Below, piece after piece: positions 4,839-40,650 of a stretch of DNA of 64,000 nt. A program made the translations under genes and the position numbers. The DNA is from an uncultured Acidobacteriota bacterium (GTDB lineage: Bacteria > Acidobacteriota > Vicinamibacteria > Vicinamibacterales > UBA2999). The notes below the pieces were generated by a model. It saw only the letters and a list, made by a program, of their open reading frames with translations. It was not told where the DNA came from and did no database searches. Numbering within the stretch: the first letter of the stretch is position 1; the number at the start of each line of letters is the position of its first letter. Location: contig CAVTIA010000014.1 in assembly GCA_963734635.1 (NCBI GenBank), positions 720,192-784,191 of the forward strand. Direction: 5' to 3'.

Positions 4839-4851
4839 GGCACACCCTCCA

Positions 4852-9227: not shown

Positions 9228-10931
9228 CTAATAGCTAAACACATATACCGCACCCGAGTCGTCCGCGGAGTTGTCGGCCTGATTGCCACCGATGCCTTTC
9301 GATGAGCCATCCTCGTTGTGCGCGCCGACCGCCATGATTCTGCCGTCGGTGCTCAGTGCCACGGCGCTTCCGAACTCGTCGCCCGCCTCCGTGTTGGACC
9401 CCTTCACGTAAGCTCGCTGTGTCCAGGTCGCCCCGCTCCGCGTGTAGAAATACACCGCACCCGATTCCTCCGCCTGCTTGCGCTGCTCGCGCCACGGATC
9501 GAGATGGTCGACGATGAGGAAGGGTTGCGGTTCCGGTGCACGGACGCCCTGGGCCGCATTGTCCTCGAGGTACGCGGTTACGGCGAGCGTGTTGCCGTCG
9601 CCGCTCAGTGCGAGCTTCACACCGAACGAGTTGTACGGACGAGGATTGTTGGCCTTGATGAACGCCTGCTCGGTCCACGTCGTCCCGGATCGCACGAAGA
9701 CGTACGCCGCTCCTACCCAGATGTTTGCAGCGCCGCGAGGTGGTGAATCGTTGTCGCACCCTGGAGGATTGATGCCGGGCGTCAGGCAATCCTCATCACC
9801 GGCGCCCGCCGCTACCGTGTTCCCGTCGTCGCTGATCGCGACGACGTATCCGAGCTGATCGGTGGCTTCGGTGCGGGATCCTTTGATGTATGCCTGCTGC
9901 CTCCATGCGCCATCACTGCGCGCGAACACGTACAACGCGCCGGCGCCGCCAGCGGTGTTGTCGCGCGGACCGTTGATGGTTCGTCCAGAGCCCCGTTCGT
10001 CGAACGCGCTGGTCACGAGCGTGTGGCCGTCAAAGCTCAGAGCTACCGCAAACCCGAGCATATCGCCGGCCTGAAGGTGCGAGCCCTTGAGGTACGCCTG
10101 CTGCGTCCACGAGGCGCCCATCCGGTTGAATACGTACACCGCCCCGGCGGACTGCTGCGAATCGTCGCGCTCGTTGCCGTTTACCTGCTGCGCCGCACCG
10201 TCTTCCGAGATTGCGCCCACGGCGAGTGTGTTGCCGTCGCCGCTCAGCGCCAATGAATAGCCGAACTGATCGCCGTCGCCGGGCACTTCGCCTTCTCCGG
10301 CCCTTCCGGTGTTCGAGGCTTTGATGTACGCCTGTTGCGTCCACGTGCTTCCCGCGCGACTGAAGACGTATACAGCGCCTGCCTGGCGGAGCGAGTTGTC
10401 GTTCTGATCGCCGTTGATTCCGGTTGCCGCGCTCGATTCCCAGGGCGCAGCGACAGCCAGGGTGTTGCCATCCCGGCTCAAGGCCACCGAGGCGCCAAAG
10501 TGATCGCTCTGGTCCGCATTCGAAGCCTTGATATACGCCTGTTGCACCCAGGAGCTGCCCTGGCGGGCGAACATGTACACAGCGCCGGATGCGTAGGCTG
10601 AATTGTCGTTCTGGTTTCCGTTGACGCCTGTCGAGCCACTGCTTTCGTACGGCGCGCCGACAACCATCGTGCTGCCGTCGCCGCTCAGGGCAATCGAATT
10701 GCCATTGTGACCCTGGTTGCCGCCGCCGTCGGCGAAGTAGTCGTAGGCCTCCGCGTTCGATGCCTTGATGTAGGCAGTCTGTTTCAGGGGCAGTAAGGGT
10801 GTCGCGGTTCGCACCTGCGATGATAGATGCCCTTCCGCGACAAGGATGATAGCCAAGGCGATGGCGTGGTGAATGTATCGTTCACGCTTCTGGGTTCTCC
10901 GTTCTCCGTTCGTGTTCAGGTTCGGTTCCAT
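9228..10931 (-). CDS. FG-GAP/integrin-like repeat beta-propeller protein, secreted
   Basis: About 8 repeats of W.QQAYIKASN...D.FG.SVALS.DGNT.AVGA..E.S..G.NGNQ.DNS...GAVYVF. The start is uncertain: the first in-frame ATG (10931) lies inside the palindromic element. Confidence 0.75.
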   Translation of the reverse strand: MEPNLNTNGERRTQKRERYIHHAIALAIILVAEGHLSSQVRTATPLLPLKQTAYIKASNAEAYDYFADGGGNQGHNGNSIALSGDGSTMVVGAPYESSGSTGVNGNQNDNSAYASGAVYMFARQGSSWVQQAYIKASNADQSDHFGASVALSRDGNTLAVAAPWESSAATGINGDQNDNSLRQAGAVYVFSRAGSTWTQQAYIKASNTGRAGEGEVPGDGDQFGYSLALSGDGNTLAVGAISEDGAAQQVNGNERDDSQQSAGAVYVFNRMGASWTQQAYLKGSHLQAGDMLGFAVALSFDGHTLVTSAFDERGSGRTINGPRDNTAGGAGALYVFARSDGAWRQQAYIKGSRTEATDQLGYVVAISDDGNTVAAGAGDEDCLTPGINPPGCDNDSPPRGAANIWVGAAYVFVRSGTTWTEQAFIKANNPRPYNSFGVKLALSGDGNTLAVTAYLEDNAAQGVRAPEPQPFLIVDHLDPWREQRKQAEESGAVYFYTRSGATWTQRAYVKGSNTEAGDEFGSAVALSTDGRIMAVGAHNEDGSSKGIGGNQADNSADDSGAVYVFSY

Positions 10932-11051
10932 GTTCGGGGTTCGAGGTTCGGCGTTCGAGGTTCGCCCCATGAACATGGAACGTTGGAACCTTGAACCCAC
11001 AACCGAACGTGAACACGAACAGAGAAATGTCAGAACCGAGAAGCGTGAACG
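10879..11051. repeat. ORF-less hairpin copy (173 bp) of the 37667..38357 element
   Basis: Termini CGTTCACGCTTCTGGGTTCTC... and ...GAACCGAGAAGCGTGAACG are reverse complements and match the termini of the ORF-bearing element. Confidence 0.7.
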
Positions 11052-11066: not shown

Positions 11067-12758
11067 CTAATACACGAACACATACGCCGCGCCGGAATCG
11101 GCCGCCGAATTGTCGGCCTGATTGCCGTTGATTCCTGTCGCCGCGCTGTCCTCGCCATGGGCGCCGACCACCATCACGTGCCCGTCGGTGCTCAGCGCCA
11201 ATGAGCTTCCGAATTCATCGCCCGCGTCCGCGTTGGCGGCTTTGACCCACGCGCCAGCCGTCCATCTGGTGCCGCTGCGCGTGTAGAAGTACACGGCGCC
11301 GGATTCTTCCGCTTCGTTCCGGTGCTCACGCCAGCCGTTCAGCATGTCCTGAATGAGGAATTGCTGGACCATCGGCGGCCGGATACCACGGCCTCCGTTG
11401 TCCTCGAGGTACGCTGAGATCGCGAGCGTATTCCCGTCGCCGCTCAGGTCGAGCCTGACGCCAAACGAGTTGTACGGCCGTGCGTTGGGCGCCTTGATGA
11501 ATGTCTGCTCCGACCAGGTGGTGCCGTTTCGAACGAACACGTACGCTGCGCCCACCCAGATGTTCGCGCCCCGGTTGGGCGGTGCATCGTCGGCACAGCC
11601 GGGAGGATCGATGCCCGGCGTCAGGCAGGCCTCGTCGCCGGAACCGACGGCGATCGTATTGCCGTCGTCGCTGATGGCCGTCGCAAAACCAAAGCCGTCG
11701 CTGGTTTCACCCTTTGAGCCTTTGATGTACGCCTGTTGGCTCCAGGTTCCGCCCTGACGCGCGAAGACATAGAGCGCGCCGGAATTCTGCGACTCGGTGT
11801 TGTCGGGAGGATTGATTCCCCTGCCGCCACCGTCTTCGTCGAATGCGGCGGCGGCGAGTGTGTTGCCGTCGAAGCTGAGCGCCACCGAAAACCCTAGACC
11901 GTCCCCTGCGCCCATGTTCGCGCTCTTGACGTAGGCCTGCTGCGCCCACGTAGTGCCCGTCCGCGCGTACACGTAAACCGCGCCGGCAGACTGCGCCGAG
12001 TCGTCGCCCTGGTTTCCATTGATCTGTTGCGCCGCGCTGTCTTCGCTGATGGCACCGACCGCCAACGTGTTGCCATCGCCGCTCAGCGTCAGCGAAAAGC
12101 CGAACTGGTCGCCGTCGCCCACGAGCGTGCCTTCGCTAGCCTTCCCCGTGTTGGACGCCTTGATGTAGGCCTGCTGCGTCCAGGTCGTACCGGTACGGGT
12201 GAAGACGTAGACAGCGCCGGACTGCGGGATCGAGTTGTCGTTCTGGTTGCCGTTGACCCCCGTAGCGCCGCTCGCTTCCCAATGGGCGGCAATCGCCATC
12301 GTATTGCCGTCGCGGCTCAGCGCGACCGACGAGCCGAAATGATCACTCTGACCGGGGTTGGAGGCCTTGACGTACGCCTGCTGCGTCCACGAATCGCCCT
12401 GGCGGACATACACGTAGACGGCTCCAGACGCGTAGACGGAGTTATCGCGCTGGTTGCCATTGACCCCGGCGGCGCCGCCGCTCTCGAACGCCGCGCCGAT
12501 GGCCATTGTGGTGCCGTCGCCATTCAGCGCGATCGACGTTCCCGTGTGACCCTGGTTTCCGCCCCCGCACGCGAAATGGTCGTAGGCTTCCGCGTTCGAC
12601 GCCTTGATATACGCCACCTGTTTGAGCGGCAGCACCGGCGGCACTTCCTTGTTCAGCGTCGGCGCCTGCGCAATCAGGTAGCCCGGAATGAAGAGAAGCA
12701 CGACGAGGGCGGCTATTCCGCCGGGATGCCGCATTACACGAGCGCTGATCCGTGACAT
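11067..12758 (-). CDS. FG-GAP/integrin-like repeat beta-propeller protein, secreted
   Basis: ATG 12758 is preceded by AAGGAG that overlaps the upstream TAA. Signal peptide IAALVVLLFIPGYLIAQA; same repeat unit as 9228..10931. Confidence 0.8.
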   Translation of the reverse strand: MSRISARVMRHPGGIAALVVLLFIPGYLIAQAPTLNKEVPPVLPLKQVAYIKASNAEAYDHFACGGGNQGHTGTSIALNGDGTTMAIGAAFESGGAAGVNGNQRDNSVYASGAVYVYVRQGDSWTQQAYVKASNPGQSDHFGSSVALSRDGNTMAIAAHWEASGATGVNGNQNDNSIPQSGAVYVFTRTGTTWTQQAYIKASNTGKASEGTLVGDGDQFGFSLTLSGDGNTLAVGAISEDSAAQQINGNQGDDSAQSAGAVYVYARTGTTWAQQAYVKSANMGAGDGLGFSVALSFDGNTLAAAAFDEDGGGRGINPPDNTESQNSGALYVFARQGGTWSQQAYIKGSKGETSDGFGFATAISDDGNTIAVGSGDEACLTPGIDPPGCADDAPPNRGANIWVGAAYVFVRNGTTWSEQTFIKAPNARPYNSFGVRLDLSGDGNTLAISAYLEDNGGRGIRPPMVQQFLIQDMLNGWREHRNEAEESGAVYFYTRSGTRWTAGAWVKAANADAGDEFGSSLALSTDGHVMVVGAHGEDSAATGINGNQADNSAADSGAAYVFVY

Positions 12759-12769
12759 ACGCCAACTCC

Positions 12770-14644
12770 TTACTCGCGGAATTTCACGATGAGGTGCGCT
12801 TTGTTGGATGTTCCGTTGCCCCACTGGAGTCCGATTTCCGGATGAAGCGGCCATGGATTCCGAACGACGATGTCGTGCCAGCCGGGCTCGCGGAGAAGAC
12901 TTCCGTCGATCACGACCTGCAGCTCGGATCCGCTCACGGCCTTGTACGACACTGGAACGCCTTTGAACAATACCTGCGAGCGCCGCACGAAATTAAAACC
13001 ACGAAGGGTGACCGTTGCCGACGCCGTGCCCTCGGTGACCATCAGCGGGGTGATCGACTCGATTGCCGGCTGCGGTGACTCGATGGGATTCGGCAGCGGC
13101 TGGCCCGGCCCGACCGGGCGATTGCCGTTGAAGCGTCCGCCGCTCCCGTTAAAGGCGACGGGCCGGAACGCGTTGACCCAGAGCAGCGCGTCGACCGGGG
13201 TATTCAGTTCTGACTCGCGCTTGAAGACCGGGTTGTAGCCGGCGCTGTATCCGAGCTGGACGCGCTTGCCGTTGAAGATGACGGTGTCCACCTGCTTCAG
13301 GTTTTCGACATTCTGCAACGGATCCGCGTTGACGATGACGATGTCCGCGATTTTACCGGCCTCGATCGTGCCGAAGTCCTTGCCGCGATCGATCGACTCA
13401 GCAGCCCACTTCGTGGCGCCCTGGATGATCTGCATCGGCGTGATGCCTGCCTCGATGAAAATCAGCATCTCGTGGATCAGACTGTTCCCGGGTACCCGCT
13501 GCGGATTCGTGTTCGCGCCCGGCAGCACGTGACCGCCGGCGTCGGCGAACATCTTGTGGAAGCGCAGCGCATTCCGATATCCCTGGAGTCTGCGCTCGCG
13601 CACCGCGCCAGTTCCGCCGGGCCGGCCACGATAGACGGCGAGCGCCGTTTCGACCCGCTCGGGCGGGTAGTAGGAGAGGAGCGCAGGATCCGCCGTCTCG
13701 AAGAACCGGCGATCCTCGAGCGCAAACTTGTCCCAGTCTCGCTGGAAGCCGCCGTAGGTGGCACGGAACGTCGGCGTCAGGGCGACATTCTGTTTGACGA
13801 GCAGCGCGATCAGCTCCCTGGCCTTCGCCTCGTCCATCTCGGAATACAGGTCGGCCTCGTTTCGCGGGTCGTCTTCGCTCGTGACCGGCGTCCGGGCGAC
13901 CGTGCGGCCGATTCCGGCCGAATGCGGCAGGTTGCGTGTGCCGAGCATTGCGGCTTCGAGAGGTCCGAGGATGGGCCCATACGCCCGCATGAATGTCGGC
14001 TTTCCGAGCCTTCGCGCCTCGTCCGCCCCCGCCTTGTAGATCTCCATCGGCAGGCCGCCTTCGGCGAACTGAATCATGTCGGCTCCCAGTTCGACCCAGG
14101 CGCGGACGAGCTCACGCGCCTCCTGGCCCGTCTTTGGGGTTCGCCCGGGCGTGCCAGGCGTTTCGAGGCCGGTGCCGCCAACGGGTTCGGTGGTGAACCT
14201 CGAAAGGCCGGTGAACGGACGCGGCCCGCGTACGAACCCCTTGTGCACCGCGTCCCGGTGCGGCGCGCCGATTTCGCCCGCTATGCCGACGTCAATCGTG
14301 GACGTGATGCCGTAGTTCAGCATCACCTCGCCGTAATACCAGTTGTAGCTGACCTGTGCATCCCACAGTCCGGGCAGGATGAACTTGCCGTCCGCACGAA
14401 TCACCTGCGCACCAGCCGGAATCGCAGTCTGGCCTCGACGCGAGACGCTGGTGATTCGATCGCCCTGGACGATGACCAGCGCGTCGATTACCGGCGTTCC
14501 GCCGTTACCGTCGATAAGGGTGCCTCCGTCAATTACCAGCGGCGCTGGCGCCTGCGCGTCGACCAGGCCGGGCATGATCCCGGCGAGCGCCATGGCGCCG
14601 ACCACGGCCAGAGAGCGGAGAAGGACTGATGCTCGCATTCGCAT
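12770..14644 (-). CDS. secreted amidohydrolase-family metallohydrolase with C-terminal Ig-like (IPT/TIG-type) domain
   Basis: GGTLIDGNGG...ADGKFILPGLWD and GKIADIVIVNADPL are amidohydrolase N- and C-terminal signatures. The tail VTLRGFNFVRRSQVLFKGVPV resembles IPT/TIG. Confidence 0.7.
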   Translation of the reverse strand: MRMRASVLLRSLAVVGAMALAGIMPGLVDAQAPAPLVIDGGTLIDGNGGTPVIDALVIVQGDRITSVSRRGQTAIPAGAQVIRADGKFILPGLWDAQVSYNWYYGEVMLNYGITSTIDVGIAGEIGAPHRDAVHKGFVRGPRPFTGLSRFTTEPVGGTGLETPGTPGRTPKTGQEARELVRAWVELGADMIQFAEGGLPMEIYKAGADEARRLGKPTFMRAYGPILGPLEAAMLGTRNLPHSAGIGRTVARTPVTSEDDPRNEADLYSEMDEAKARELIALLVKQNVALTPTFRATYGGFQRDWDKFALEDRRFFETADPALLSYYPPERVETALAVYRGRPGGTGAVRERRLQGYRNALRFHKMFADAGGHVLPGANTNPQRVPGNSLIHEMLIFIEAGITPMQIIQGATKWAAESIDRGKDFGTIEAGKIADIVIVNADPLQNVENLKQVDTVIFNGKRVQLGYSAGYNPVFKRESELNTPVDALLWVNAFRPVAFNGSGGRFNGNRPVGPGQPLPNPIESPQPAIESITPLMVTEGTASATVTLRGFNFVRRSQVLFKGVPVSYKAVSGSELQVVIDGSLLREPGWHDIVVRNPWPLHPEIGLQWGNGTSNKAHLIVKFRE

Positions 14645-14701
14645 TTCAGGAAAGTGTGAGGAGCGCCATTATGGTCAACCGGCGAAAGATCGGTCAATTC
14701 A

Positions 14702-18724: not shown

Positions 18725-18837
18725 CGTTCACACTTCTGTGTTCTCCATTCTCTGTTCGTGTTCACGTTCGGTTCGAAGTTCGAGGCGCGGTCGAACCTGA
18801 ACACGAACCGAGAAGTGAGAACCAGGAAGCGTGAACG
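18725..18837. repeat. ORF-less hairpin copy (113 bp) of the 37667..38357 element
   Basis: The left arm CGTTCACACTTCTGTGTTCTCCATTCTCTGTTCGTGTTCACGTTCG and the reverse complement of the right arm agree at most positions by eye. Confidence 0.75.
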
Positions 18838-29327: not shown

Positions 29328-29349
29328 CGCGCAGGCTTTAGCCTGCGCG
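29324..29349. repeat. REP-like hairpin GTAGCGCGCAGGCTTTAGCCTGCGCG
   Basis: GC stem around a CTTTAG loop; same family as 7544 and 9200. Confidence 0.7.
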
Positions 29350-29421
29350 GGATCCCTTACGTGGGGCGGGTGCCGCCAAGCGGCGTAATACCACGCGAGG
29401 CGGACCCGCCGGAGATACACA

Positions 29422-30495
29422 ATGTCGAAAATCCGAATCGCCGTCCTTATGCCCGCGCAAGCTAAAGCTTGCGCGCTACTGGTCGCTTTGCTTGCGGTGC
29501 TCCCACTAGCACACCTGTCTGCCCAACAGCGCGGCCGTGGCGCCGGCGGCCGGGGCAATGCACCCGAGTTTCCGACCGACCTGCAGTGGTCGAGCAACGC
29601 CGAAACGCAGCGGCGTGTGGCGACGGCAATGAAAATTGCCGGTTCGGATCTGGTTCCACAGGCCAAGATGTTCTGCACCGCGACGGGTCCGCAGCGCATG
29701 GCGGTGGCGAGACAAGCGGCCGGTCTGCCGCCCATGCCGAACGTCGTGGTCGAGCCAACCCGCGTGTTCGACAACATGTGGTGGATCGGCATGACGTCCC
29801 AGAACGTCTGGGCGATCACGACCAGTGAAGGCATCATCCTGCTCGACACGATGAACAGCTCGGATGAAGCGCGCGATGTGATTGTCGCGAGCATGAAAAA
29901 GGTGGGCCTCGATCCGGCGCAGATCAAGTACATCGTCATCGGTCACGGTCATCCGGGACAGTCGGATCACACCGGCGGCGCGCTGCATCTGCAGAAGACG
30001 TACGGCGCCAAGGTGGTGATGAGCCCGATCGATGCCAAGCTCGTGTTGCCGACGCAGCGTGCCGATCGTCCGCTCGCGGTGCCCGACATCGACGCCGTTC
30101 ACGGGCAGAAGCTCACGCTGGGCGACACGACGCTGACCTTGGCTCATATTCCGGGCCATACGCCCGGCACAATGGGGGTGATTGTGCCGGTGAAGCTGCG
30201 AGGCGCCTCGCATTCCGTGATCGTGCTGGCGGCCACGCAGATGCCCACGCGCGAGTCGCTGATCCAGTTCGAGAAGGTCTTCACCGAGTTTGCGAAGCCG
30301 ATGAAGGTGGAGGCCTCACTCAACATGCATGCGAACGGCGTGCAGAACGACCTCGAGTTCCTGGAGCAGATCCGCAAGAACCCGAACGGTCCGAACCCGT
30401 ATCTCTACGGACCCGAGCGCTTCAGCCGGTGGATGGACATCATGATCGAGTGCGGCAGGGGACGGCTGGCGGCACTGGGAGTGAGCACGAACTGA
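29422..30495 (+). CDS. secreted MBL-fold metallohydrolase
   Basis: IILLDTMNS...IVIGHGHPGQSDHTGG (HxHxxxDH). The start may be ATG 29422 or ATG 29449. Codons 11-19 are encoded by a REP-like hairpin (29454..29479). Confidence 0.7.
   Translation: MSKIRIAVLMPAQAKACALLVALLAVLPLAHLSAQQRGRGAGGRGNAPEFPTDLQWSSNAETQRRVATAMKIAGSDLVPQAKMFCTATGPQRMAVARQAAGLPPMPNVVVEPTRVFDNMWWIGMTSQNVWAITTSEGIILLDTMNSSDEARDVIVASMKKVGLDPAQIKYIVIGHGHPGQSDHTGGALHLQKTYGAKVVMSPIDAKLVLPTQRADRPLAVPDIDAVHGQKLTLGDTTLTLAHIPGHTPGTMGVIVPVKLRGASHSVIVLAATQMPTRESLIQFEKVFTEFAKPMKVEASLNMHANGVQNDLEFLEQIRKNPNGPNPYLYGPERFSRWMDIMIECGRGRLAALGVSTN
29454..29479. repeat. REP-like hairpin CGCGCAAGCTAAAGCTTGCGCGCTAC inside the 5' end of a CDS
   Basis: Perfect stem GCGCAAGC/GCTTGCGC with a TAAA centre, translated as PAQAKACAL. 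Confidence 0.6.
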
Positions 30496-30502: not shown

Positions 30503-30550
30503 CGTTCACACTTCTGGGTTCTCGGGTTCTCTTGGGCGTCTGCGTTCTTC
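30503..30550. repeat. solo left arm of the 37667..38357 element family
   Basis: CGTTCACACTTCTGGGTTCTCGGGTTCTC... with no matching right arm; lies between two convergent genes. Confidence 0.55.
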
Positions 30551-31377: not shown

Positions 31378-31432
31378 GGACGGCCGCTCCACCACGCACC
31401 TCGCTATAATCTGACCCGCTCCCGCACGAGAC

Positions 31433-34099
<2,667 letters not shown>

Positions 34100-34155
34100 G
34101 CGCGATCACTTCACATCGGACAGGCCTGTTCAGATATCGCTCGTGGGAGGCACCT

Positions 34156-34440
34156 ATGAGCCAATCATGCCGTCTCGCATTTCTGGTTTGCCTGTGTCTC
34201 GTCGGGACACTTGGCTCAGTCGCCTGAAAGCACCCTCGCATTGTTTGGTGTCTCCGTCGTCCCCATGAACTCGATGCGATGTACTCGGTCGTAAGCGACG
34301 CGACTGAACATCTCGCCGGATGGGAAACGGTTCTCAGCCGTCACGGAACGCGCCCCAAGTGAACAGCCGCACATCATTGTCGTGCACACCTGGTTCGAGG
34401 AGTCGAAGCGTCTGTGCGCGAGAACTGAGAACCTGTCGTT
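34156..34440 (+). pseudogene. gene debris: signal peptide, amidohydrolase-like N-terminal fragment and a PD40-protein C-terminal tag in three different frames
   Basis: GGGAGG-ATG 34156 gives MSQSCRLAFLVCLCLVGTLGSVA then a stop. Other frames read AQSPESTLALFGVSVVPMNS and QPHIIVVHTWFEESKRL (compare IVLNFFDELRRRVP at the end of 31433..34099). Confidence 0.4.
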
Positions 34441-34464
34441 CACACGTGTGAACTGAGAACGCGT

Positions 34465-34645
34465 CGTTCACACTTCTCGGTTCTGCGTTCTCAGTTCCTG
34501 TTCACGTTCGGTTCGGTCCGGTCCGGCGAAGCCGAACACTACGAACTGCCGGTCGCACGCGCACCTGAACAAGCGAACTCAGAACGCGAACTCTGAACCG
34601 AACCTGAAGCACGAACCGAGCACCGGGAACGTAGAAGTGTGAACG
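34465..34645. repeat. ORF-less hairpin copy (181 bp) of the 37667..38357 element
   Basis: Termini CGTTCACACTTCTCGGTTCTGCGTTCTCAG... and ...GGAACGTAGAAGTGTGAACG. An extra partial terminus CGTTCACACGTGTGAAC lies at 34437..34453. Confidence 0.7.
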
Positions 34646-34664
34646 ACGACGAGGCGTTCAGCGT

Positions 34665-35375
34665 TCAGACCGCCACCCCCACCGTGAACGTCGCGTTGTA
34701 CCCCGTCGTCGGGCTGCCCGTCACGTTTGCCATTTCTGACGCCACGCTGTCGGCGAACACGTTGTCACGCGCGTTGGCCGTCGGGTTCTGACCCTTCGGC
34801 GCGTATACACCCGTCGAGTACAAAGCTGCGGTCAGGCTCTCGGGAAATGCAATCTGCGTCACCTTTACCGATCTGCCGTTCATCGTCACGTCGACGTGGA
34901 TGTGCGTGGCGCGTCCCTGGTACCAGCCCGGGTAGATCGTCGTGAAGGTCACCCGCCCCGAGCTGTCACTGGTCTGAATGCCGCGCAGGAACGTTTCGGA
35001 CACGCCGTTGTAGCCAGGCTGGGCGTATTGCGAGTAGTGGCCGTCTGCATCGCACTGCCAGATTTCCACGTTTGCGCCCGCGACGGGACTGCAGCCATTG
35101 TTCACGTTCACCACGCTGATCGTCAGCGTCAATGGAGCGCCGGTCTTACCTTCGCGGATGTCGCTTCTGAAAAGATCCGTCAGCGAAGGGTAGGGCCCGA
35201 CGGTTTCGGATGGCGACACCGCACAGGCTGCATTTGTGCCCGTCGTGGTCGTCGCGGCGGCCGCTTCCACAGTGCTCGGGCCAGTCGGCGTCTCTCCGCA
35301 GCGAATCAGCGAAAGCGCCGCACCCGAAGCGCCCAACATGCCCAGCGCCTCGCGGCGTGTGAGTCTTTGTTTCAT
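34665..35375 (-). CDS. Tat-exported intradiol ring-cleavage dioxygenase-family protein
   Basis: ATG 35375 preceded by GGAGGA; MKQRLTRREALGMLGA is Tat-like; VGPYP, EIWQCDADGHYS and GRATHIHV are intradiol dioxygenase blocks. Confidence 0.7.
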   Translation of the reverse strand: MKQRLTRREALGMLGASGAALSLIRCGETPTGPSTVEAAAATTTTGTNAACAVSPSETVGPYPSLTDLFRSDIREGKTGAPLTLTISVVNVNNGCSPVAGANVEIWQCDADGHYSQYAQPGYNGVSETFLRGIQTSDSSGRVTFTTIYPGWYQGRATHIHVDVTMNGRSVKVTQIAFPESLTAALYSTGVYAPKGQNPTANARDNVFADSVASEMANVTGSPTTGYNATFTVGVAV

Positions 35376-35520
35376 CTCCACATCCTCCAGTGGTGTGATT
35401 CCACTGGAAAGGTGTTGTCCATCCGTTGGGGGTGTACAAAAAGAGTATGGCAGCCGGACACGAAAGCTTCATGAAGCTGTCACAGTTTCGCAGTACTTCT
35501 CCGTTTGAATTCAGGCATCG

Positions 35521-36978
35521 ATGAAGCCTCCTGCGCACGGCCGCCGGTCCACGCTGTACGGGAGCTTCTACTGGCGTCTCGGGATCAGCTTCGTCGTGTT
35601 CGTGCTTGCGGTGCTCGTTGCGCAGAGCGTCATGTTCAGCTACATCCTCGCGGGAACGAACGCGCGGAATCCTTCTCTTTCACCCAACAATCTGGCCACC
35701 TCGGCCGCTGCCGAGGTTGGGGCCGCCCTGACCGCCAACCCGGACCTGGATCTGGGCGCGTATCTGACCAGCCGCTATGGCCGCGAGCCTTGGCCTGTCT
35801 TCGTCGTCATGAGTGACGGTTCGGTCTCCGGCAACTCGACTCGGGCGCTGTCGGATGACATTCGGCGATCGGCTCAGTCCGCGCTTCGAGGCACGGGTAT
35901 CGACCGGGGCAGCACGCCGGCGCCCGAGGGGCCTGTGGTCACCGCTCCCATCCAGGTAGGCGGCGAGCTGCGCGGCCTGGTAGTGCTGCCGCCACCGCCG
36001 CCGGGTGGGGTACTGCGAGACGTGGGCCGTCTGCTATCGCTACCGGGCACGATCGTCCTGGTGATCGCGACGCTTGTTGCCGTCGTCATCATCTTCGCTC
36101 CAGCGCGGCGCCGTCTCTCGGCGCTCGAGGATGCGGCCGAACGTTTGGGTGCCGGCGATTTGACCGCGAGGGCGCCCGGCGAAGGCGGCGATGAAATCGC
36201 GCGCGTGTCGCGCGCGTTCAACCGCATGGCCGAAGACCTTGCCACGCGCGACGAGGCGCTGCGCGCGTCGGACCGATTGCGCCGCCAGATGCTCGCCGAC
36301 GTTTCCCACGAGCTGAAGACGCCGCTGACGGCGATGCGCGGCTACGTCGAGACCCTGCGCATGCCTGAAGTGGCGCTGGACGAGAATCGACGAGCCAGGT
36401 ACCTCGAGACGATCGAGTCCGAGACGCTTCGGCTCGATCGCATCGTGAAGGATCTCCTCGATCTGGCGAGGTACGAAAACAACGTGGCGCCGCTCGACGT
36501 CCGCGTTTTCGACGTGGCTCGGCTGTTCGACAACGTCGTTCGACGACACGAGCACGACACGAGCACGCGGCACATCACGGTATCTTCCGAGGTTGAAGGC
36601 GGCGCTGATCAAATCGTTGGCGACCCCGATCGCATCGAACAGGTCGTCGAGAACCTGGTAACGAACGCCGTCCGCCACACACCTGAGGGGGGCCGAATCG
36701 AGCTGCGTGCCGGAATGGCGAATGAGTGTGCGGTGCTGTCGGTGGCGGATTCCGGCAGCGGCATCGCGCCGGAGCACCTGCCGTACGTATTCGACCGCTT
36801 TTACAAAGTGGATCCCGCACGCGCGGCGGCAGGAGCGGGCAGCGGGCTCGGACTGTCGATTGCGAAAGCGATTGTCGTACGCCACGGCGGCACAATCGCA
36901 GTTGCCAGCGCACCGGGCAGCACGAGATTCACCATCTCGCTGCCTCAGGCGGCTCACTCAACGTCGACGAATTTATAG
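35521..36978 (+). CDS. sensor histidine kinase (TM-HAMP-HisKA-HATPase)
   Basis: H-box SHELKTPLTAMRGY, N-box VENLVTNAVRHT, G-boxes DSGSGI and GSGLGLSIAKAIV. Confidence 0.9.
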   Translation: MKPPAHGRRSTLYGSFYWRLGISFVVFVLAVLVAQSVMFSYILAGTNARNPSLSPNNLATSAAAEVGAALTANPDLDLGAYLTSRYGREPWPVFVVMSDGSVSGNSTRALSDDIRRSAQSALRGTGIDRGSTPAPEGPVVTAPIQVGGELRGLVVLPPPPPGGVLRDVGRLLSLPGTIVLVIATLVAVVIIFAPARRRLSALEDAAERLGAGDLTARAPGEGGDEIARVSRAFNRMAEDLATRDEALRASDRLRRQMLADVSHELKTPLTAMRGYVETLRMPEVALDENRRARYLETIESETLRLDRIVKDLLDLARYENNVAPLDVRVFDVARLFDNVVRRHEHDTSTRHITVSSEVEGGADQIVGDPDRIEQVVENLVTNAVRHTPEGGRIELRAGMANECAVLSVADSGSGIAPEHLPYVFDRFYKVDPARAAAGAGSGLGLSIAKAIVVRHGGTIAVASAPGSTRFTISLPQAAHSTSTNL

Positions 36979-37673
36979 CCGACACCCCAGGCGGTCAGGA
37001 TTAGCTCCGGATCCTGCGCGTCGCGCTCGATCTTCCGGCGCAGCCTGCTGATGACCGTGTCCACGGTGCGTTCGGTCACGTAGGTGTCGTCGCTCCAGAC
37101 GTTCTGGAGCAGCGCTGCCCGGCTGAAGACGATCCCTGGCCTGCGGGCGAGCTGATACAGGAGGTCGAACTCCTGGCGGGTCAACTCGATCGGGGCGCCG
37201 CGTACGATCGCTTCGCGCCGCTCCGGGTCGAGCTGCACGTTCGCGGCCGACGTGCGCTTCCGCGCCGGGGCCGGGCTGTCGTCGTCACGGGCGTGCCGCC
37301 GTGTGATGGCGTTGACGCGTGCGATGAGCTCGCGGATGCCGAAGGGCTTGGTGAGGTAGTCGTCTGCACCGCTTTCGAGCCCCAACACCTTGTCAGATTC
37401 CGTGTCGCGCGCGGTCAGCATCAGGATTGGGGTGCTGACGTTCGGTCCGCCCGTCCGGATCGCGCGGCACAGCGAGACTCCGTCCAGGCCCGGCAGCATG
37501 ACGTCGAGAATCACGAGGTTGTACGCGCTCTCGCGAAGGCGGCGCAGCGCCTCGCGACCGTCGGCGGACTCTTCGACTTCGAACCCGGCGAGCTCGAGGT
37601 GCAGGCGCAGCAGATCACGTACGGGAAGCTCGTCCTCGACGACGAGGGCGCGGCGCGAAAAGCCGTCGTTCAC
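36954..37673 (-). CDS. OmpR-family response regulator
   Basis: ALVVEDE...ILDVMLPGLDG receiver domain plus winged helix TVDTVISRLRRKIE...TAWGVGYKF. The GTG start lies within the element terminus. Confidence 0.9.
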   Translation of the reverse strand: MNDGFSRRALVVEDELPVRDLLRLHLELAGFEVEESADGREALRRLRESAYNLVILDVMLPGLDGVSLCRAIRTGGPNVSTPILMLTARDTESDKVLGLESGADDYLTKPFGIRELIARVNAITRRHARDDDSPAPARKRTSAANVQLDPERREAIVRGAPIELTRQEFDLLYQLARRPGIVFSRAALLQNVWSDDTYVTERTVDTVISRLRRKIERDAQDPELILTAWGVGYKFVDVE

Positions 37674-38357
37674 ACTTCTCAGCTTCTCCGTTCTCAGTTC
37701 GTGTTCACGTTCAGTTCCGGCGTTCAGAGTTCACCTTTCCGAGGTTCGACGTTCTTGCACCTGCATTCGCGCAAGCCGTGCAAATTCTGCGTACCTGACC
37801 CGAATAGGCGAGCAATCATGGCCTGAAGACCTTGGCACTCGGCGTGCTCCGTTGCGCACCATGGGCGTACACCGATTCACGGAACTACGCGCCTGGCAGG
37901 CCTGCAACGTTTACAAGAATGCAGTCTATCGACTCTGCGAGCAAGGATCGCTCTCGACAGACTGGAAGCGTCGAGGACAGCTCGAAGATTCGGTATCTGG
38001 TCCACCCGGACACATCGCCGAAGGGTTCGGCAGATTCAACCCGGCCGACTTTGCACGCTTCGCCGTAATCGCGCGGTCGTCGCTCATGGAATCGCAGAAT
38101 CATCTGCGAGACGCGGTCGATAAGGGCTACATCACCGAAGACATTCGCCTCGAACACGACAAGCTTGCCGAGGCCGCTCTCGAGGAGGTCACCGGACTGC
38201 TGGAGTACCTTCAGTCTCCCGAGGCGCTGCGAAACGCTCGCCGCGCCCGTGAACGCCGCATCGCGTCAAGATCCGAACGCCGAACCAAGAACCCGAACAA
38301 CGAACCAGAACCGAACCTGAACACGAACCGAGAAGCGAGAACCGAGAAGAGTGAACG
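37667..38357. mobile_element. 691-bp element bounded by about 50-nt imperfect inverted repeats and carrying a four-helix-bundle (23S-IVS-type) gene
   Basis: The left arm starts CGTTCACACTTCTC and the right arm ends GAGAAGAGTGAACG. The arms are reverse complements, and the same termini bound ORF-less copies at 10879, 18725 and 34465. Confidence 0.6.
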
Positions 38358-38361
38358 ATAG
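37861..38361 (+). CDS. four-helix-bundle protein (23S rRNA intervening-sequence protein family)
   Basis: FTELRAWQACNVYKNAVYRL...GHIAEGFGRFNPADFARFAVIARSSLMESQNHLRDA is typical of the family. The last ~35 codons are arm-encoded low complexity. Confidence 0.75.
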   Translation: MGVHRFTELRAWQACNVYKNAVYRLCEQGSLSTDWKRRGQLEDSVSGPPGHIAEGFGRFNPADFARFAVIARSSLMESQNHLRDAVDKGYITEDIRLEHDKLAEAALEEVTGLLEYLQSPEALRNARRARERRIASRSERRTKNPNNEPEPNLNTNREARTEKSER

Positions 38362-38367
38362 TTTGCT

Positions 38368-40650
38368 TTACCGCGTCGCCGTCGCCGCCGTCGTCACTCT
38401 GACCGGCTGCACCATGGCGCCGTTGCCCGCCGTGTCCCATGCGGCAAATCGGACCCACTTCTTGCCCGTGGCGTCGAACGGAATCTCGAAGCGCTTCCGG
38501 CCAAGCGGCGCGAGCTCTGTGGCGGGGATGATCTGGCGATCGATCTTGGCGCCGTCGCCCCACACGACCTCGACGAACTCGAGCGGGAACGTCCATTCGA
38601 GATCGGCCACGATCGTGCGCTTGGCTCCTGCACCCTGCACCGCGTAGTTGGATATGAGCACTTCGCCCGACGTCCAGAAGTAGTCGCCACGCTTGACCGA
38701 ATCGATGATCGAGTCCCAATTGCCGCTGCTTGCGAGCGGGAGGGTGTCGAGCTTCACGTACTGCACCGGGCTGTTGGCGTAGAAGTCGTCGCCCGGCCCC
38801 TGCTCGTACGTTTCGGTGATCGCCTGGATGTATTTGAGCTGGCCCGGCTTGTCGGCCATCCAGTTGTTCATCTCGTCCAACAGCGTCTGGCAGCGGATCT
38901 CGCACAGGCGCTGCTCAGAGCCGTCGAGGCCCATGCCCCATCGGACGCCGATGCCGCGGTAGTTGTCGTCGATGAAGTAGCCGCGATCCTTGATGGCGTC
39001 CGGATAACCTGTCGACCCCTTTGATCGGGGATGCGGCATGAAGATCAGCAGGTTCTCGCGGCGGACCATCTCCATCATCTCGTCAGGTCCGGCGATTCGA
39101 TAGACCTTGCCGTATGTCGGGTGATTCTCGACGAACGGCTGATCCGGCTTGCGATCCGGCAGCCAGTAGACCGGCTTGGAGACCAGCAGATCGTTGTGGC
39201 CGCCGATGCCCCCAGCCGCCCCTTCTTCGTTCGGCATAATCAGAAAGTTCTTGTCCGAATGGCGTCTCGCGACTTCGTAGTAATCGGCGAGCGTCTTGAG
39301 ACGGTCTTCGCGCGGAAGACCAAAGCCAAGCCCGCTGCCGTCAATGGGCGCGAAGATATTGACGCCCGCCGCCTTGACGACGTCGAAGTCGTGAAGGCGT
39401 ACGTCGAGGCTGCCACCCTGTCGTCGCAACCGGCCCACCAGCGCTGAGTGAAAGTGGGTGGCCATCACCTGATAGCCTGGCAGCGGTTTGAACTTGTCGT
39501 CGCGGGTAAATGCCAGCGCTCCCCTGGCCGCGCCATCGGCGGGCGTAGCGCTCACGTACAAGTAGACCGGCATCCGCTGCCACGTGCCCGGCCGCGCGCT
39601 GCGCAGCGCGAAGTTCTGCCGCGTGTCCTCTGCACCGCGACCCATGTCCTCGGGGCTCGATTCCGCTTCCGGCTGTCTGACGCCGAACGAATAGCTCGAC
39701 GCGCCGTCCTTGCGGTAGTAGACGTAGCCCTGGTTGAACGAGACCTCGCGCGACCAGAAGAAGTTGTGAGGCGGCGGGAACGCGGCAATCGAGCCCGCGG
39801 CTCCTTCGGCGACGACGAGCCGGTTCTGCGCGCGGAGCGGCACGATGTCAGTGTTCTGTGCACCACCGAATCGGTAGTCCTGCCAGATGTTCGACACGTC
39901 GCGCCACGCGACGCGCGACGCCGCGTCGATTCGCAGCCCCTTGAGTCCGCCTTCGTACTTGTAAGCTACCGAGTCGACGTCGGTCTTGGCGATTACCTCC
40001 TGCTCGATGAGGTTGGTGCCTCGGTAGATCGAGTATTGCAGGCGGCCATTGAACACTCCAAGCTGCACTCCGTCGAAGCTGACCTCCAGGCGCGCTCCAT
40101 TCGTCTTGACGTCGCAGCCGCGCGCGGCATAGGCGGCGGTCGCGCGCTTGATCTCCTCCGGTTTTCGCGGGAGGGCCGGCTGATCGAGAAGCCCCTTCGG
40201 GGGAGGAATCGCATTCATCCGCGTGTTTTCGAGCGGCTCTGTATTGAGCGGCGCGTCCCAGAAGGCGTCCCACTTGATGCTGTCGATCAACTCCTTCGTC
40301 AGTTCGACCTTCAGGCCGCGCAGCGGCTGGAGCTGCTGCTCGGTGACCCGGCGGACACCGCTGACCACGCGGTAATCCGGCGTGACACCCGTAGCGACGA
40401 CCTTCCAGTCCCCCCGCTGCGGCCGCACGGCGAGCTCCGCGATCGTCGGAACTCCGCTCATCACGGTCATCCGCAGTCTGACCTGTTGTCCGGAGTCGCC
40501 GTCCCATGTGACCGTCAGCGCATCGTTTGCAACGGTGGCGGTCAGGCCGGGAGCTGGACGGTAGTCGCTCAGATTGCAGGTGAGCGGATCTGCGGATGCC
40601 GCAGCAGACGTGAACAGCAGCATGGCGACTGTCGCGAAGGGTGCTCTCAT
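38368..40650 (-). CDS. large secreted hypothetical protein (760 aa)
   Basis: Signal peptide MRAPFATVAMLLFTSAAASA; long uninterrupted ORF with coding-like composition; no motif I can name. Confidence 0.6.
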   Translation of the reverse strand: MRAPFATVAMLLFTSAAASADPLTCNLSDYRPAPGLTATVANDALTVTWDGDSGQQVRLRMTVMSGVPTIAELAVRPQRGDWKVVATGVTPDYRVVSGVRRVTEQQLQPLRGLKVELTKELIDSIKWDAFWDAPLNTEPLENTRMNAIPPPKGLLDQPALPRKPEEIKRATAAYAARGCDVKTNGARLEVSFDGVQLGVFNGRLQYSIYRGTNLIEQEVIAKTDVDSVAYKYEGGLKGLRIDAASRVAWRDVSNIWQDYRFGGAQNTDIVPLRAQNRLVVAEGAAGSIAAFPPPHNFFWSREVSFNQGYVYYRKDGASSYSFGVRQPEAESSPEDMGRGAEDTRQNFALRSARPGTWQRMPVYLYVSATPADGAARGALAFTRDDKFKPLPGYQVMATHFHSALVGRLRRQGGSLDVRLHDFDVVKAAGVNIFAPIDGSGLGFGLPREDRLKTLADYYEVARRHSDKNFLIMPNEEGAAGGIGGHNDLLVSKPVYWLPDRKPDQPFVENHPTYGKVYRIAGPDEMMEMVRRENLLIFMPHPRSKGSTGYPDAIKDRGYFIDDNYRGIGVRWGMGLDGSEQRLCEIRCQTLLDEMNNWMADKPGQLKYIQAITETYEQGPGDDFYANSPVQYVKLDTLPLASSGNWDSIIDSVKRGDYFWTSGEVLISNYAVQGAGAKRTIVADLEWTFPLEFVEVVWGDGAKIDRQIIPATELAPLGRKRFEIPFDATGKKWVRFAAWDTAGNGAMVQPVRVTTAATATR

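Follow-up and report, generated by a model that had tools for sequence, protein, structure and literature searches.

A four-helix-bundle gene enclosed by inverted GTTC-type repeat arms in a Vicinamibacterales genome: a possible REPIN/RAYT-like partnership of gene and repeat

Results

The 64-kb stretch of DNA analyzed here (the window) comes from a genome of the Vicinamibacterales (Acidobacteriota). It contains a 691-bp unit (37667-38357) whose neighbors are a response-regulator gene (36954..37673, minus strand) and the gene of a 760-aa protein (38368..40650), that is, the unit lies outside any rRNA gene. Translation of the response regulator begins at a GTG codon that lies inside the left terminus of the unit. 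On the other side, the stop codon of the 760-aa gene, which is convergent, lies 10 nt away from the right-arm terminus. The unit holds a single open reading frame (ORF), which encodes a four-helix-bundle (4HB) protein of the PF05635 family, and neither a transposase nor an integrase. The original prediction, made from the sequence alone, had described such an ORF bracketed by imperfect inverted arms of about 50 nt, in the stem-plus-ORF layout of an rRNA intervening sequence (IVS), with no transposase or integrase and away from rRNA. Each of these points is borne out, with arms of 46 nt that pair in the predicted fold (Table 1). As a search of the whole window against Rfam at gathering thresholds returned no rRNA and no other family, the unit corresponds to no known RNA family.

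Table 1. Positions of the features of the 691-bp unit and of the ORF-less repeat copies in the window
Feature	Position	Strand	Basis or remark
Left arm	37667..37712	+	46 nt; nhmmer arm model 46.8 bits, motif search
Looser GTTC-type repeats running inward from left arm	37713..37752	+	Sequence
Small palindromic motif GCAAATTCTGC (GCAR-N2-4-YTGC)	37780..37790	+	Leader conservation
Sigma54-type -24/-12 promoter-like motif TGGCACTCGGCGTGCT (GG-N10-GC)	37833..37848	+	Leader conservation
4HB gene	37861..38361	+	166 aa + stop; PF05635 domain aa 8-114
GAAC-type repeats just inside right arm, in ORF 3' end	38262..38311	+	Direct-repeat families D2, D5
Right arm	38312..38357	-	Same 46-nt consensus on minus strand; nhmmer 47.5 bits
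ORF-less hairpin, 173 bp	10879..11051	.	Arm model; fold z = -10.2
ORF-less hairpin, 113 bp	18725..18837	.	Arm model; fold z = -7 to -8
Solo, truncated arm	30503..30531	+	8 nt after Lactamase_B stop codon
ORF-less hairpin, 181 bp	34465..34645	.	Arm model, comparison with L119

The left arm is composed of degenerate 6-8-nt GTTC-type units with the consensus CGTTCAC r CTTCT nn GTTCTC nn TTCTC n GTTCGT GTTCA s GTTCG. The palindrome at this arm reaches the GT at 37665-37666, and across the family the inverted repeat usually reaches 2 nt beyond the limits in the original prediction (GT/CGTTCAC...GTGAACG/AC), which is a small correction. The looser repeats that continue inward are found at the same place as GGTTCGG-type repeats in an alignment of 69 leaders and are mirrored by the GAAC-type repeats at the other end of the unit. 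The stretch 37684-37720 pairs with 38305-38341 at 84% complementarity.

The assignment of the ORF to the four-helix-bundle family, first proposed from the sequence alone, is upheld by profile searches, in which it scores 53.9 bits against PF05635 (gathering cutoff, 33.8), its only significant Pfam match, and 50.9 bits against TIGR02436 (cutoff, 24). The family is very large, with 7,994 matches at E <= 1e-5 from one query. A monomer model from AF2 (pLDDT 83.9, with the tail below 50) predicts a four-helix bundle with confidence, and Foldseek aligns this model with the four-helix bundles 2GSC (E = 5e-5, TM 0.86) and 2RLD (TM 0.83-0.86) and with Avd (4DWL/8UB7, TM about 0.8); 2GSC is also matched at the sequence level (E = 5.8e-10). 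Neither Pfam nor Foldseek detected a nuclease or recombinase fold in the ORF, and PADLOC and PHROGs profiles gave no match to defense or phage families. Beyond the domain there is a conserved arginine-rich helix (aa 120-140; 38218-38280), and the helix RNARRARERRI is among the many invariant residues of the homolog alignment. The disordered tail (aa 141-166) is translated arm, as the original prediction had noticed: 15 codons come from the right arm and about 17 more from the GAAC-type repeats inside it, and among homologs all three reading frames of the arm serve as tail. Judged from codon substitutions, the gene is under strong purifying selection (dN/dS median 0.084, maximum 0.17, n = 62), and its synonymous sites (dS) are saturated relative to most relatives. 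No second 4HB paralog was found in the window, where the sole weak match is an ORF reading through the 173-bp hairpin.

A promoter-like motif, TGGCACTCGGCGTGCT, ends 13 nt before the ATG of the 4HB gene, which would make the mRNA leaderless or nearly so. Its pattern GG[CT]A[CT]-N6-TGC is present in 61 of 69 leaders (0.3 in shuffles), in which the GG-N10-GC motif ends 12-20 nt before the ATG, and TGGCACTCGGCGTGCT is the only strict match in the 64-kb window. Similarity between the paralogous elements A and B begins exactly at this motif. The leader block GGCAY...RTGCT was also considered as a small stem, a reading that we rejected since there is no Y/R covariation; the block is consequently read as a -24/-12 promoter motif. 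Scans of the unit for sigma70-like promoters and intrinsic terminators found none, and 37500-38500 holds no terminator-like site. On the basis of this motif, the 4HB gene probably has a sigma54-type promoter of its own and may depend on sigma54. Further upstream, a small palindromic motif of the type GCAR-N2-4-YTGC, 80-140 nt before the ATG in 46 of the 69 leaders, is a candidate upstream activator site (GCAAATTCTGC here).

The terminus CGTTCACRCTTCT has 10 matches in the window at up to 1 mismatch, against 0.17 expected. The motif search recovers exactly the termini that had been predicted, namely those of the 691-bp unit, of three shorter hairpins, and of a solo arm. The tenth match, at 45419, is in coding sequence, is missed by the arm model, and probably arose by chance. 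The 173-bp hairpin is 16 nt after the stop codon of an FG-GAP gene (11067..12854, minus strand), and the 113-bp hairpin is between convergent genes, 7 nt from a stop at 18844. The right arm of the 181-bp hairpin is orthologous to the left arm of an intact paralogous 4HB element, B, in the close relative L119, and the hairpin is thus a remnant of a second element. The solo arm likewise goes back to element B: in L119, L115, and L001, its orthologous counterpart abuts Lactamase_B. Between the solo arm and the arm at 38357 lies a stretch of about 7.9 kb that the two bracket.

These copies belong to a repeat family of these soil bacteria that is found in at least 108 genomic stretches, nearly all of them from Vicinamibacterales/Acidobacteriota MAGs and many per MAG. 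Most of its hairpins lack a 4HB gene; the 84 arm pairs fall into size classes, 101-362 bp for those without the ORF and 691-749 bp for those with it. Their stems, of about 46 bp, carry no T-run. Of 194 termini, 45% follow a stop codon at a distance of at most 20 nt, compared with 3% of random positions (15-fold). As a test for target-site duplications, the boundaries of 149 pairs were compared for direct repeats of 2-6 nt, which occur at or below chance. One assembled locus, L194, ends inside a hairpin, an instance of hairpins breaking assemblies.

In 172 arms, the GTTC-type columns are about 100% conserved and the spacer columns are free, and this conservation stands beside saturated dS in the enclosed gene. 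The left arm is no more similar to the reverse complement of its own right arm (identity 0.859) than to shuffled partners (0.857 +/- 0.003), and compensatory covariation between the two arms is absent from this set. Hairpin formation is therefore not demonstrably selected, and we claim no selected RNA structure; the arms are constrained at the level of sequence and not of pairing. In the predicted fold of the whole unit, the arms are paired in both the MFE and centroid structures (z = -5.8); for the ORF-less copies, z ranges from -4.9 to -10. Arm identity is 0.877 within genomes and 0.864 between them, a difference reached by 0 of 1000 permutations, which amounts to a slight genome-specific homogenization of the arm sequences.

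Comparison of metagenomic loci with a homolog (52-85% protein identity) reveals a near-obligate linkage of gene and arms. Both arms are present at 46, thus at most but not all, of the 52 loci testable with the 46-nt arm model; taken singly, the upstream arm is present at 62 of 67 and the downstream arm at 61 of 65. The MAG loci L003 and L016 show the same linkage. Clustering of 68 loci by genomic context gives 13 groups, which track the protein tree, and the number of distinct contexts is at least 9-13. Paralogous two-component genes have probably led this clustering to join the window, L001, and L003 wrongly, as their neighborhoods differ on direct inspection. Position is largely conserved within protein clades, which together with saturated dS points to long vertical residence.

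Presence and absence vary at orthologous sites. This is not what the original prediction had named as the mark of ordinary conserved terminators, namely the same hairpins at every orthologous site. Another relative, L195, has an empty site. L119 carries the element of the window with a 195-bp internal deletion and retains an intact paralog B where the window keeps only the 181-bp hairpin and the solo arm, so that the window and L119 show reciprocal loss of paralogs. In L115, element B is in flipped orientation. Internal-deletion derivatives with real gene fragments occur in L119/L120 (484 bp) and L085 (496 bp), and the remnants of element B in the window are likewise internal-deletion derivatives. 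The loops of most short copies share only low-complexity GTTC repeats with full-element interiors, and for this reason the origin of those copies is not readable. Arms in L199 enclose Fic/MazE cargo. Recombination, deletion, and inversion between arms, and not transposition, explain much of the local variation. A single-inversion model relating L001 to the window was dropped because the gene orientations do not fit, and a clean history comes instead from the comparison with L119 and L115.

The same design was found in other phyla. Of 14 distant 4HB genes, 12 are significantly flanked (z = 5-19) by inverted arrays whose short tandem units are specific to the lineage, a thirteenth was positive in a separate analysis, and one was negative, in a sample that is small and consists mostly of cyanobacterial plasmids. 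In a control with 44 genes, only the 4HB gene and its immediate neighbor score for such arrays, whose tandem units are short and variable in copy number. On 12 cyanobacterial plasmids, the 4HB gene lies amid lineage-specific short tandem repeats. In Gemmatirosa (Gemmatimonadota), the repeat unit is GGCAGGAG. In Xanthomonas, Luteimonas, and Dyella (Xanthomonadales), inverted GGGAATC heptamers enclose a 4HB gene between accB and accC, a copy fixed at this single site across genera. 4HB genes in other phyla are mid-operon not only there but also between cas6 and cas4 and between cas10 and cmr3. The recurrence of the gene-in-repeat design with different units in three other phyla suggests, from sequence comparison, that the protein family and such repeats belong together.

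The GGGAATC heptamers are the dispersed repeat family of PMC4692102, which describes units of about 7 nt, often in convergent inverted pairs, intergenic, and of unknown function, and does not mention a link with the 4HB gene. Our literature search found no link of 4HB/S23p to heptamer, STRR, or flanking repeats; its coverage was incomplete, and an earlier description is possible.

Discussion

The features of the 691-bp unit recall several known systems, each of which differs from it in part. ORF-bearing IVSs of 23S rRNA, as in Leptospira and Coxiella, carry an S23p ORF in a stem that is excised by RNase III, and they are inserted in helix 25 or 45. The unit shares with them the PF05635 family and the layout, with the ORF in a loop that is closed by a long stem of paired terminal inverted repeats. 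Unlike an IVS, it lies between protein-coding genes, has its own sigma54-type promoter motif, and has arms of a family that is dispersed and includes many copies without an ORF. In the Coxiella IVS, heptamer repeats are next to the S23p ORF, which is apparently not expressed and decaying (PMC4990558), whereas the 4HB ORF here is under strong purifying selection.

The resemblance to REP/REPIN-RAYT systems is of another kind: the gene, usually single and for the most part inherited vertically, has on either side inverted copies of a repeat that is dispersed as extragenic palindromic doublets, mostly at gene 3' ends, and that differs in sequence by lineage. A RAYT is an IS200/IS605-type Y1 HUH transposase, however, and the product here is a small four-helix bundle for which no catalytic activity is known; in the arms, 6-8-nt units are arrayed in tandem, unlike the single palindrome of a REP. 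Avd of diversity-generating retroelements (DGRs) shares the fold and superfamily and is a basic, nucleic-acid-binding protein, a property that may extend to the 4HB protein by analogy, and solved relatives are pentameric. Sequence identity to Avd is only about 8%, and RT, template, and variable repeats are lacking nearby. Dispersed heptamers, among them the short tandem STRR of cyanobacteria, are a further parallel, with the inverted pair around the 4HB gene in the Xanthomonadales; in contrast to perfect heptamer arrays, the units here are degenerate and in fixed order within a defined 46-nt arm. Finally, terminal inverted repeats and short ORF-less copies, at least some of them internal-deletion derivatives, are shared with MITEs and autonomous insertion sequences, which differ from the unit in that it lacks target-site duplications and a transposase and shows no trace of recent bursts.

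We consider the best reading to be that the 691-bp unit is the resident, intact copy of a Vicinamibacterales repeat family that resembles REPs/REPINs and the non-rRNA counterpart of an ORF-bearing 23S IVS, in which gene and repeat form a REPIN/RAYT-like partnership with the 4HB protein as cognate repeat binder. For this explanation as a whole, we estimate a probability of roughly 0.45. The 4HB protein would recognize tandem GTTC/GAAC units sequence specifically, probably in single-stranded or hairpin RNA (or ssDNA), in the way that the structurally related Avd holds RNA within the DGR ribonucleoprotein. By analogy with RAYTs and REPINs, the gene, with one intact copy per genome, and the repeat family would be a coinherited pair. 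The hairpins may act at the RNA level like IVS or REP stems, as dsRNA processing or 3'-end stabilizing structures at gene ends that the 4HB protein could modulate. ORF-less copies would derive from ORF-bearing units by internal deletion plus an additional copying step, and recombining arms would generate inversions, deletions, and bracketed cargo. The 4HB fold has no known catalytic site and thus does not by itself account for the copying of repeats. An unlinked factor, such as a RAYT, RNase III, or a nucleoid protein, might just as well have its site in the arms, and both points weigh against the partnership. So do the lack of covariation between arms, the small cross-phylum sample with its one negative case, the decaying ORF of Coxiella, and the fact that 46 of 52 loci and not all of them have both arms.

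The original prediction likened the unit to an autonomous element with MITE-like derivatives. In a fuller form of this view, a selfish mobile element transposes whole by an undescribed mechanism, with the 4HB protein as mobility factor and the ORF-less hairpins as nonautonomous derivatives mobilized in trans; an old hypothesis of Ralph & McClelland (cited in PMC4990558) speaks for it. The MITE-like part of that view gains from the internal-deletion copies in L119/L120 and L085, and the discrete boundaries common to ORF-bearing and ORF-less copies, the empty site, the two paralogous elements within one clade, the variety of contexts, and the mid-operon genes of other phyla also fit mobility. 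Nothing shows an autonomous transposon, however: the ORF has no nuclease or recombinase fold, target-site duplication is absent, and recombination between arms accounts for much of the local variation. Since context tracks phylogeny and dS is saturated, relocation of the unit is rare, and the Xanthomonadales copy at one site across genera agrees with this. We therefore regard an autonomous element as unlikely. It is also rather improbable that the 4HB gene is a mere passenger, a small gene, selfish or neutral and of no relation to the repeats, that persists best in hairpin loops or is moved by arm recombination, with the REP-like hairpins maintained through something unlinked to it (a RAYT-type transposase, or selection for a function at mRNA 3' ends). 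Such a gene would suit arms that also enclose unrelated cargo, as with Fic/MazE in L199 and the 7.9 kb or so in the window, the majority of hairpins without a 4HB gene, and a placement at stop codons that is typical of REPs. It is hard to see why a passive passenger would recur in four phyla beside wholly different repeat units, given the negative control, and linkage that is near-obligate over 52-85% protein identity, strong purifying selection, and an own conserved promoter motif also speak against it.

Retro-copying has a more slender claim. Here a pentamer of the 4HB protein, like Avd, would serve an RT encoded elsewhere that copies hairpin RNA into DNA, which would spread the repeat into highly transcribed loci including rRNA genes. 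The structural similarity to Avd and the DGR ribonucleoprotein (4DWL, 8UB7), the arrays of short units with variable copy number, and insertion into transcribed regions (operons, rRNA) accord with this purely structural analogy, which we judge very unlikely, as no RT is present in any neighborhood inspected and poly-A or other hallmarks of retro-copying are missing. The unit is not itself a DGR, a candidate that fails for lack of an RT, of template and variable repeats next to the gene, and of long direct repeats in or around the unit. Ordinary conserved terminators or attenuators that flank a small gene by chance would account for hairpins right after stop codons, often between convergent genes. 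We consider this extremely improbable and the intrinsic-terminator reading effectively refuted, in view of the long stems without a U-tract, the empty terminator scan, the consensus held across genera in the whole family, and the presence/absence variation and deletion derivatives.

If the partnership of gene and repeat holds, it is possible, though we would put this forward only tentatively, that PF05635 proteins in general are cognate partners of dispersed short-tandem-repeat hairpin families, represented by the Vicinamibacterales GTTC arms, the Xanthomonadales GGGAATC repeats, the cyanobacterial STRR-type heptamers, and the Gemmatirosa GGCAGGAG unit. They would recognize their repeats sequence specifically and maintain or spread them, perhaps with a host polymerase or an RT in the manner of Avd, as a second, transposase-free REPIN/RAYT-like symbiosis, and ORF-bearing 23S IVSs would be copies that landed in rRNA helices.

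To our knowledge, the only functional anchors for the large PF05635/TIGR02436 family, whose function is unknown, are the 23S IVS and the Avd protein of DGRs. Two longstanding observations also lack an explanation, namely the dispersed heptamer repeats of cyanobacteria and Xanthomonas and the way in which rRNA intervening sequences arose. The linkage of the gene to lineage-specific repeat hairpins, reproducible in four phyla, joins these three puzzles, of protein function, heptamers, and IVS origin, into one testable hypothesis, that the protein binds the repeat that flanks its gene. The linkage also points to tractable organisms, such as Xanthomonas with XCC0516, a member of solved structure that is encoded between accB and accC. 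On the practical side, the hairpins break assemblies and mediate inversions and deletions. If true, the partnership would bring a case without a transposase into the REPIN/RAYT concept, in which populations of repeats within genomes are inherited vertically.

RESULTS

A conserved gene with a tail encoded by its own repeat

The window carries a single gene of the four-helix-bundle (4HB) family, no second copy being found in it, and the family assignment made in the original prediction was right: profile searches score its 166-aa product at 53.9 bits against PF05635 (cut-off, 33.8) and 50.9 bits against TIGR02436 (cut-off, 24). The AlphaFold model (pLDDT 83.9) comprises a four-helix bundle, a fifth helix (aa 120 to 140), and a disordered tail (aa 147 to 166), and Foldseek matches it to XCC0516 (2GSC; TM 0.86), BT_0352 (2RLD), and Avd of the DGR ribonucleoprotein (4DWL and 8UB7; TM about 0.8). 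Close homologs of the protein are from Vicinamibacterales and other Acidobacteria. It had also been noticed that the C-terminal end is encoded by the right arm, and indeed homolog tails translate that arm, with each of its three reading frames represented (EPNLNTNRE..., EPEHEPRTE..., and ...RTKNRT before the stop). As every frame is used, the tail is a product of incidental read-through, and the part of the protein that functions stops near residue 140; the final conserved segment among homologs is an arginine-rich helix, LRNARRARERRIASR, invariant or nearly so. In pairwise comparison with 62 homologs, median dN/dS is 0.084 and the highest value 0.17, with dS saturated for most of them. The 4HB gene is functional and self-contained.

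Features of the window
Feature	Position (strand)	Remark
4HB unit (element A)	37667-38357	691 bp
4HB gene	37861..38361	166 aa
Left arm; right arm	37667-37712 (+); 38357-38312 (-)	46 nt
GG-N10-GC motif	37833-37848	TGGCACTCGGCGTGCT; sole strict match in 64 kb
ORF-less arm pairs	10879/11051; 18725/18837; 34465/34645	
Solo truncated arm	30503-30531	
Outer inverted pair	30503-38357	~7.9 kb; solo arm after Lactamase_B and arm after 760-aa gene
Response-regulator gene	36954..37673 (-)	sole available start, GTG, within left terminus (GTGAACG, 37667-37673)
760-aa gene	38368-40650 (-)	highly conserved, with 2130 homologs at E <= 1e-50; zero Pfam domains
Lactamase_B gene	29422..30495	
ORFs adjoining solo arm	30549-30794 (-); 30931-31323 (-)	
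GTCCGCCTGAAGGCGGACACTACGTACG-type palindromes	2421-2482; 58456-58535	unrelated to the arms
Further intergenic inverted repeats	29323-29480; 62088-62188; 53206-53254	
tRNA-Glu(CTC)	53441-53531	ARAGORN; 91 nt, unusually long for bacterial tRNA-Glu

Arms, hairpins, and their placement

A model of the arm (46 nt), derived from the copies in the window, recovers the inverted arms that bracket the gene and every ORF-less recurrence originally listed. The terminus motif occurs 10 times in the window (0.17 expected), in which Rfam models detect neither rRNA nor any other RNA family. Folding of the whole unit pairs both arms (z = -5.8), and the short copies form long hairpins with imperfect pairing (z = -4.9 to -10). 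The repeat end supplies or overlaps the start of the response-regulator gene, whose GTG lies within the terminus. The outer inverted pair encloses a toxin-antitoxin-like pair, a Ser/Thr kinase, a hairpin, a dioxygenase, a histidine kinase/response regulator, and the 4HB gene.

Each arm consists of about seven degenerate units of 6 to 8 nt, following the pattern C GTTCAC r CTTCT nn GTTCTC nn TTCTC n GTTCGT GTTCA s GTTCG, and the palindrome is usually 2 nt longer (GT...AC). Across 172 arms, the GTTC-type block columns are 94 to 100% conserved, and columns 8, 14-15, 22-23, 29, and 41 are unconstrained. The left and right arms of an element resemble each other (0.859) no more than arms of different elements do (0.857 +/- 0.003), so there is no compensatory covariation; selective constraint acts on the sequence of each arm and not demonstrably on pairing. 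Arm identity is slightly higher within genomes than between them (0.877 versus 0.864, a difference reached in 0/1000 permutations), and 4HB-flanking and free arms of one genome share variants (e.g., TTCGGGGTTCG in comparison locus L128), which together indicate weak concerted evolution. With ORFs of at least 150 aa reading toward the terminus, 45% of 194 termini lie at most 20 nt after a stop codon, compared with 3% of random positions, and the rule holds for all five window copies. No target-site duplication was found at element boundaries.

The leader, from arm start to ATG, has a median length of 211 nt and contains GTTC-type repeats; 46/69 leaders also have small GCAR-N2-4-YTGC palindromes 80 to 140 nt upstream of the ATG. 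The best-conserved leader block is GGCAY-N5-RTGCTC, a GG-N10-GC motif present in 61/69 leaders (0.3 in shuffles) and ending 12 to 20 nt before the ATG. Its Y and R positions do not covary, which argues for a sequence motif over a stem. As the block resembles the sigma54 -24/-12 consensus, TGGCACG-N4-TTGCW, it may be a sigma54-type promoter, in which case the mRNA would be leaderless or nearly so. Scans of the unit detected neither a sigma70-like promoter nor an intrinsic terminator.

Distribution and linkage of gene and arms

Scanned for exact matches to the pattern CGTTCACRCTTCTNNGTTCT, GTDB species genomes yielded at least 108 stretches; among the matches listed, nearly all are from Vicinamibacterales/Acidobacteriota MAGs, many per MAG. 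Applied to the listed loci and to the window, the arm model gives at least 84 arm pairs and at least 51 solo arms, with an ORF-less class of 101 to 362 bp, a discrete class of 691 to 749 bp that contains the 4HB gene, and intermediate pairs of 496 and 1140 bp that carry gene fragments. A metagenome scan added 80 loci encoding homologs of 52 to 85% identity; on contigs long enough to test, the upstream arm is present in 62/67, the downstream arm in 61/65, and both in 46/52. A perfect full-length arm (51.7 bits) in L027 (CAZGLC010000101.1), labeled as a Bifidobacteriaceae MAG, is most likely on a mis-binned Vicinamibacterales contig. In a variant of the architecture that recurs in two lineages, the 4HB gene has a whole ORF-less hairpin immediately upstream and only a single arm downstream (L001, a Vicinamibacterales relative, 4756-4921; L218, Gemmatirosa, 520-615).

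History of the locus among relatives

In relatives, the 760-aa and Lactamase_B genes are convergent neighbors, and an orthologous empty site does exist: in L195 (protein 85% identical), their stop codons adjoin each other, and both arm and 4HB gene are absent. The gap holds differing cargo in L197, L198, and L199, and in L199 an arm follows each stop codon, the two enclosing an HTH/Fic/MazE segment (12275-14690). The junction is a variable hot spot (outer-membrane protein in L197, ODP in L198, empty in L195). L196 has a solo arm 10 nt downstream of the 760-aa stop, and in L194 (99% identical) an arm is in the same position and is cut off by the end of the contig.

The clearest comparison is with L119/L120 (88 to 95% nucleotide identity to the window). 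There, element A stands beside the 760-aa gene with the equivalent of 37853-38047 deleted, so that the first 62 codons are gone and the rest is 92 to 95% identical in an open frame. An intact paralogous element, B (82% nucleotide identity), follows the same response regulator, histidine kinase, and dioxygenase genes; its left arm aligns with the right arm of a window hairpin (34645..34574) and its right arm with the solo arm adjoining Lactamase_B (30525..30503). Element B lies between Lactamase_B and the kinase gene in opposite orientation in L115, and L001 also has a B-type copy. The clade thus once had two elements; the window has kept A, with B reduced to arms, and L119 has kept B, with A being lost. 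Internal deletion is thus a source of ORF-less copies. The segment between arms can flip, and arm-arm recombination deletes or brackets other genes. Among 68 loci, 13 context groups follow the 4HB protein clades, indicating rare relocation and mostly vertical inheritance.

The same design in other phyla

Distant PF05635 genes (30 to 55% identity to queries), from plasmids and Xanthomonadales chromosomes, have a significant inverted repeat between their flanks in 12/14 cases (z = 5 to 19). The arms are lineage-specific arrays of short tandem units, mostly heptamers (GGGAAAA, TTAGCTG, GTCAGGA, AGGAGATA, AGGTGAC, GGGAACA, GGGGTGT, and GGGAAGA). The Pseudanabaena gene was positive with a wider search window, and the test was negative for Nostoc PCC 7120 gamma. 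In a 49-kb control stretch with 44 genes, such flanks occur only at the 4HB gene and the gene next to it, and inverted arrays of the same heptamer, without an ORF, are found close by. Arms in Gemmatirosa (Gemmatimonadota) are GGCAGGAG / CTCCTGCC arrays.

In Xanthomonas citri, Luteimonas, and Dyella (L206, L222, and L224), the XCC0516 (2GSC) ortholog lies between accB and accC with inverted GGGAATC heptamers on either side, so that an accBC transcript would contain an IVS-like stem around the gene; the position is fixed across the three genera. GGGAATC is known as a dispersed repeat of Xanthomonas campestris and X. citri: the paper that describes it counts about 186 sites, about 70 of them as convergent pairs, and leaves the 4HB gene unmentioned (PMC4692102). 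In the Coxiella 23S rRNA intervening sequence (IVS), GACAGAT heptamers lie upstream of the S23p ORF, and the stem is cleaved by RNase III (PMC4990558). On cyanobacterial plasmids, 4HB genes lie inside cas operons (L205/L209, L212, and L211), separating cas6 from cas4 in Pseudanabaena and Anabaena sp. 90, and cas10 from cmr3 in Picosynechococcus, which is probably why metagenomic surveys list the family as cas-associated (PMC3936711, PMC10910872).

Other features of the window

Hairpin repeats of several families are plentiful in this genome. The GTCCGCCTGAAGGCGGACACTACGTACG-type family also occurs in L196 (12344-12372), where one unit immediately adjoins a solo GTTC arm. Further types are AGTAGCGCGCAGGCTTTAGCCTGCGCGGG, whose loop is 100 nt, a periodic palindrome of the GGGCTTTAGGC type, and, upstream of a tRNA, the A/T-rich palindrome AAAGTGCAAAGT. 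The two small ORFs beside the solo arm may be a toxin-antitoxin cassette: the 81-aa ORF has a sub-threshold match to an Rv0078B-related antitoxin (19.3 bits; cut-off, 27.1), and the other is nucleotidyltransferase-like by eye, with no Pfam match.

DISCUSSION

The findings fit a partnership of gene and repeat like that of REPIN/RAYT (dispersed palindromic repeats with a partner transposase) built on the architecture of an rRNA IVS. As in that system, the gene is vertically inherited, usually as a single intact copy, and nested in an inverted pair of a repeat family whose ORF-less copies are numerous at gene 3' ends; the 4HB system differs in having no transposase. It can be hypothesized, at a probability of roughly 45%, that the 4HB protein is the cognate binder of the tandem units in its arms. 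This reading draws on the conservation of arms as sequence, in periodic units, while synonymous sites saturate, from a repeat unit that changes whenever the 4HB lineage changes, and from the basic helix and Avd-like fold of the protein. On this view, the hairpins would work as RNA, forming stems for processing or stabilization like those of IVSs or REPs, and the sigma54 dependence of the gene and any copying mechanism are likewise conjectural.

The original prediction of an IVS-type element outside rRNA with ORF-less derivatives was fair, and its further step to an autonomous element was not borne out. True autonomous mobility is unlikely, given that target sites are not duplicated, the protein has no catalytic fold, and relocation is rare. 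We consider it similarly improbable that the 4HB gene is a passenger in an independently maintained REP family, as its linkage to repeats recurs across phyla. A role as an Avd-like cofactor of retro-copying, an idea drawn from structural analogy, is more doubtful still, and ordinary terminators are effectively excluded.

The arrangement is a variant of the rRNA IVS and of REPIN/RAYT. In the literature, which was incompletely covered, we found no paper linking PF05635 to flanking or dispersed tandem repeats, and the generality across phyla appears unreported. With this finding, the function of a large orphan family becomes directly testable.
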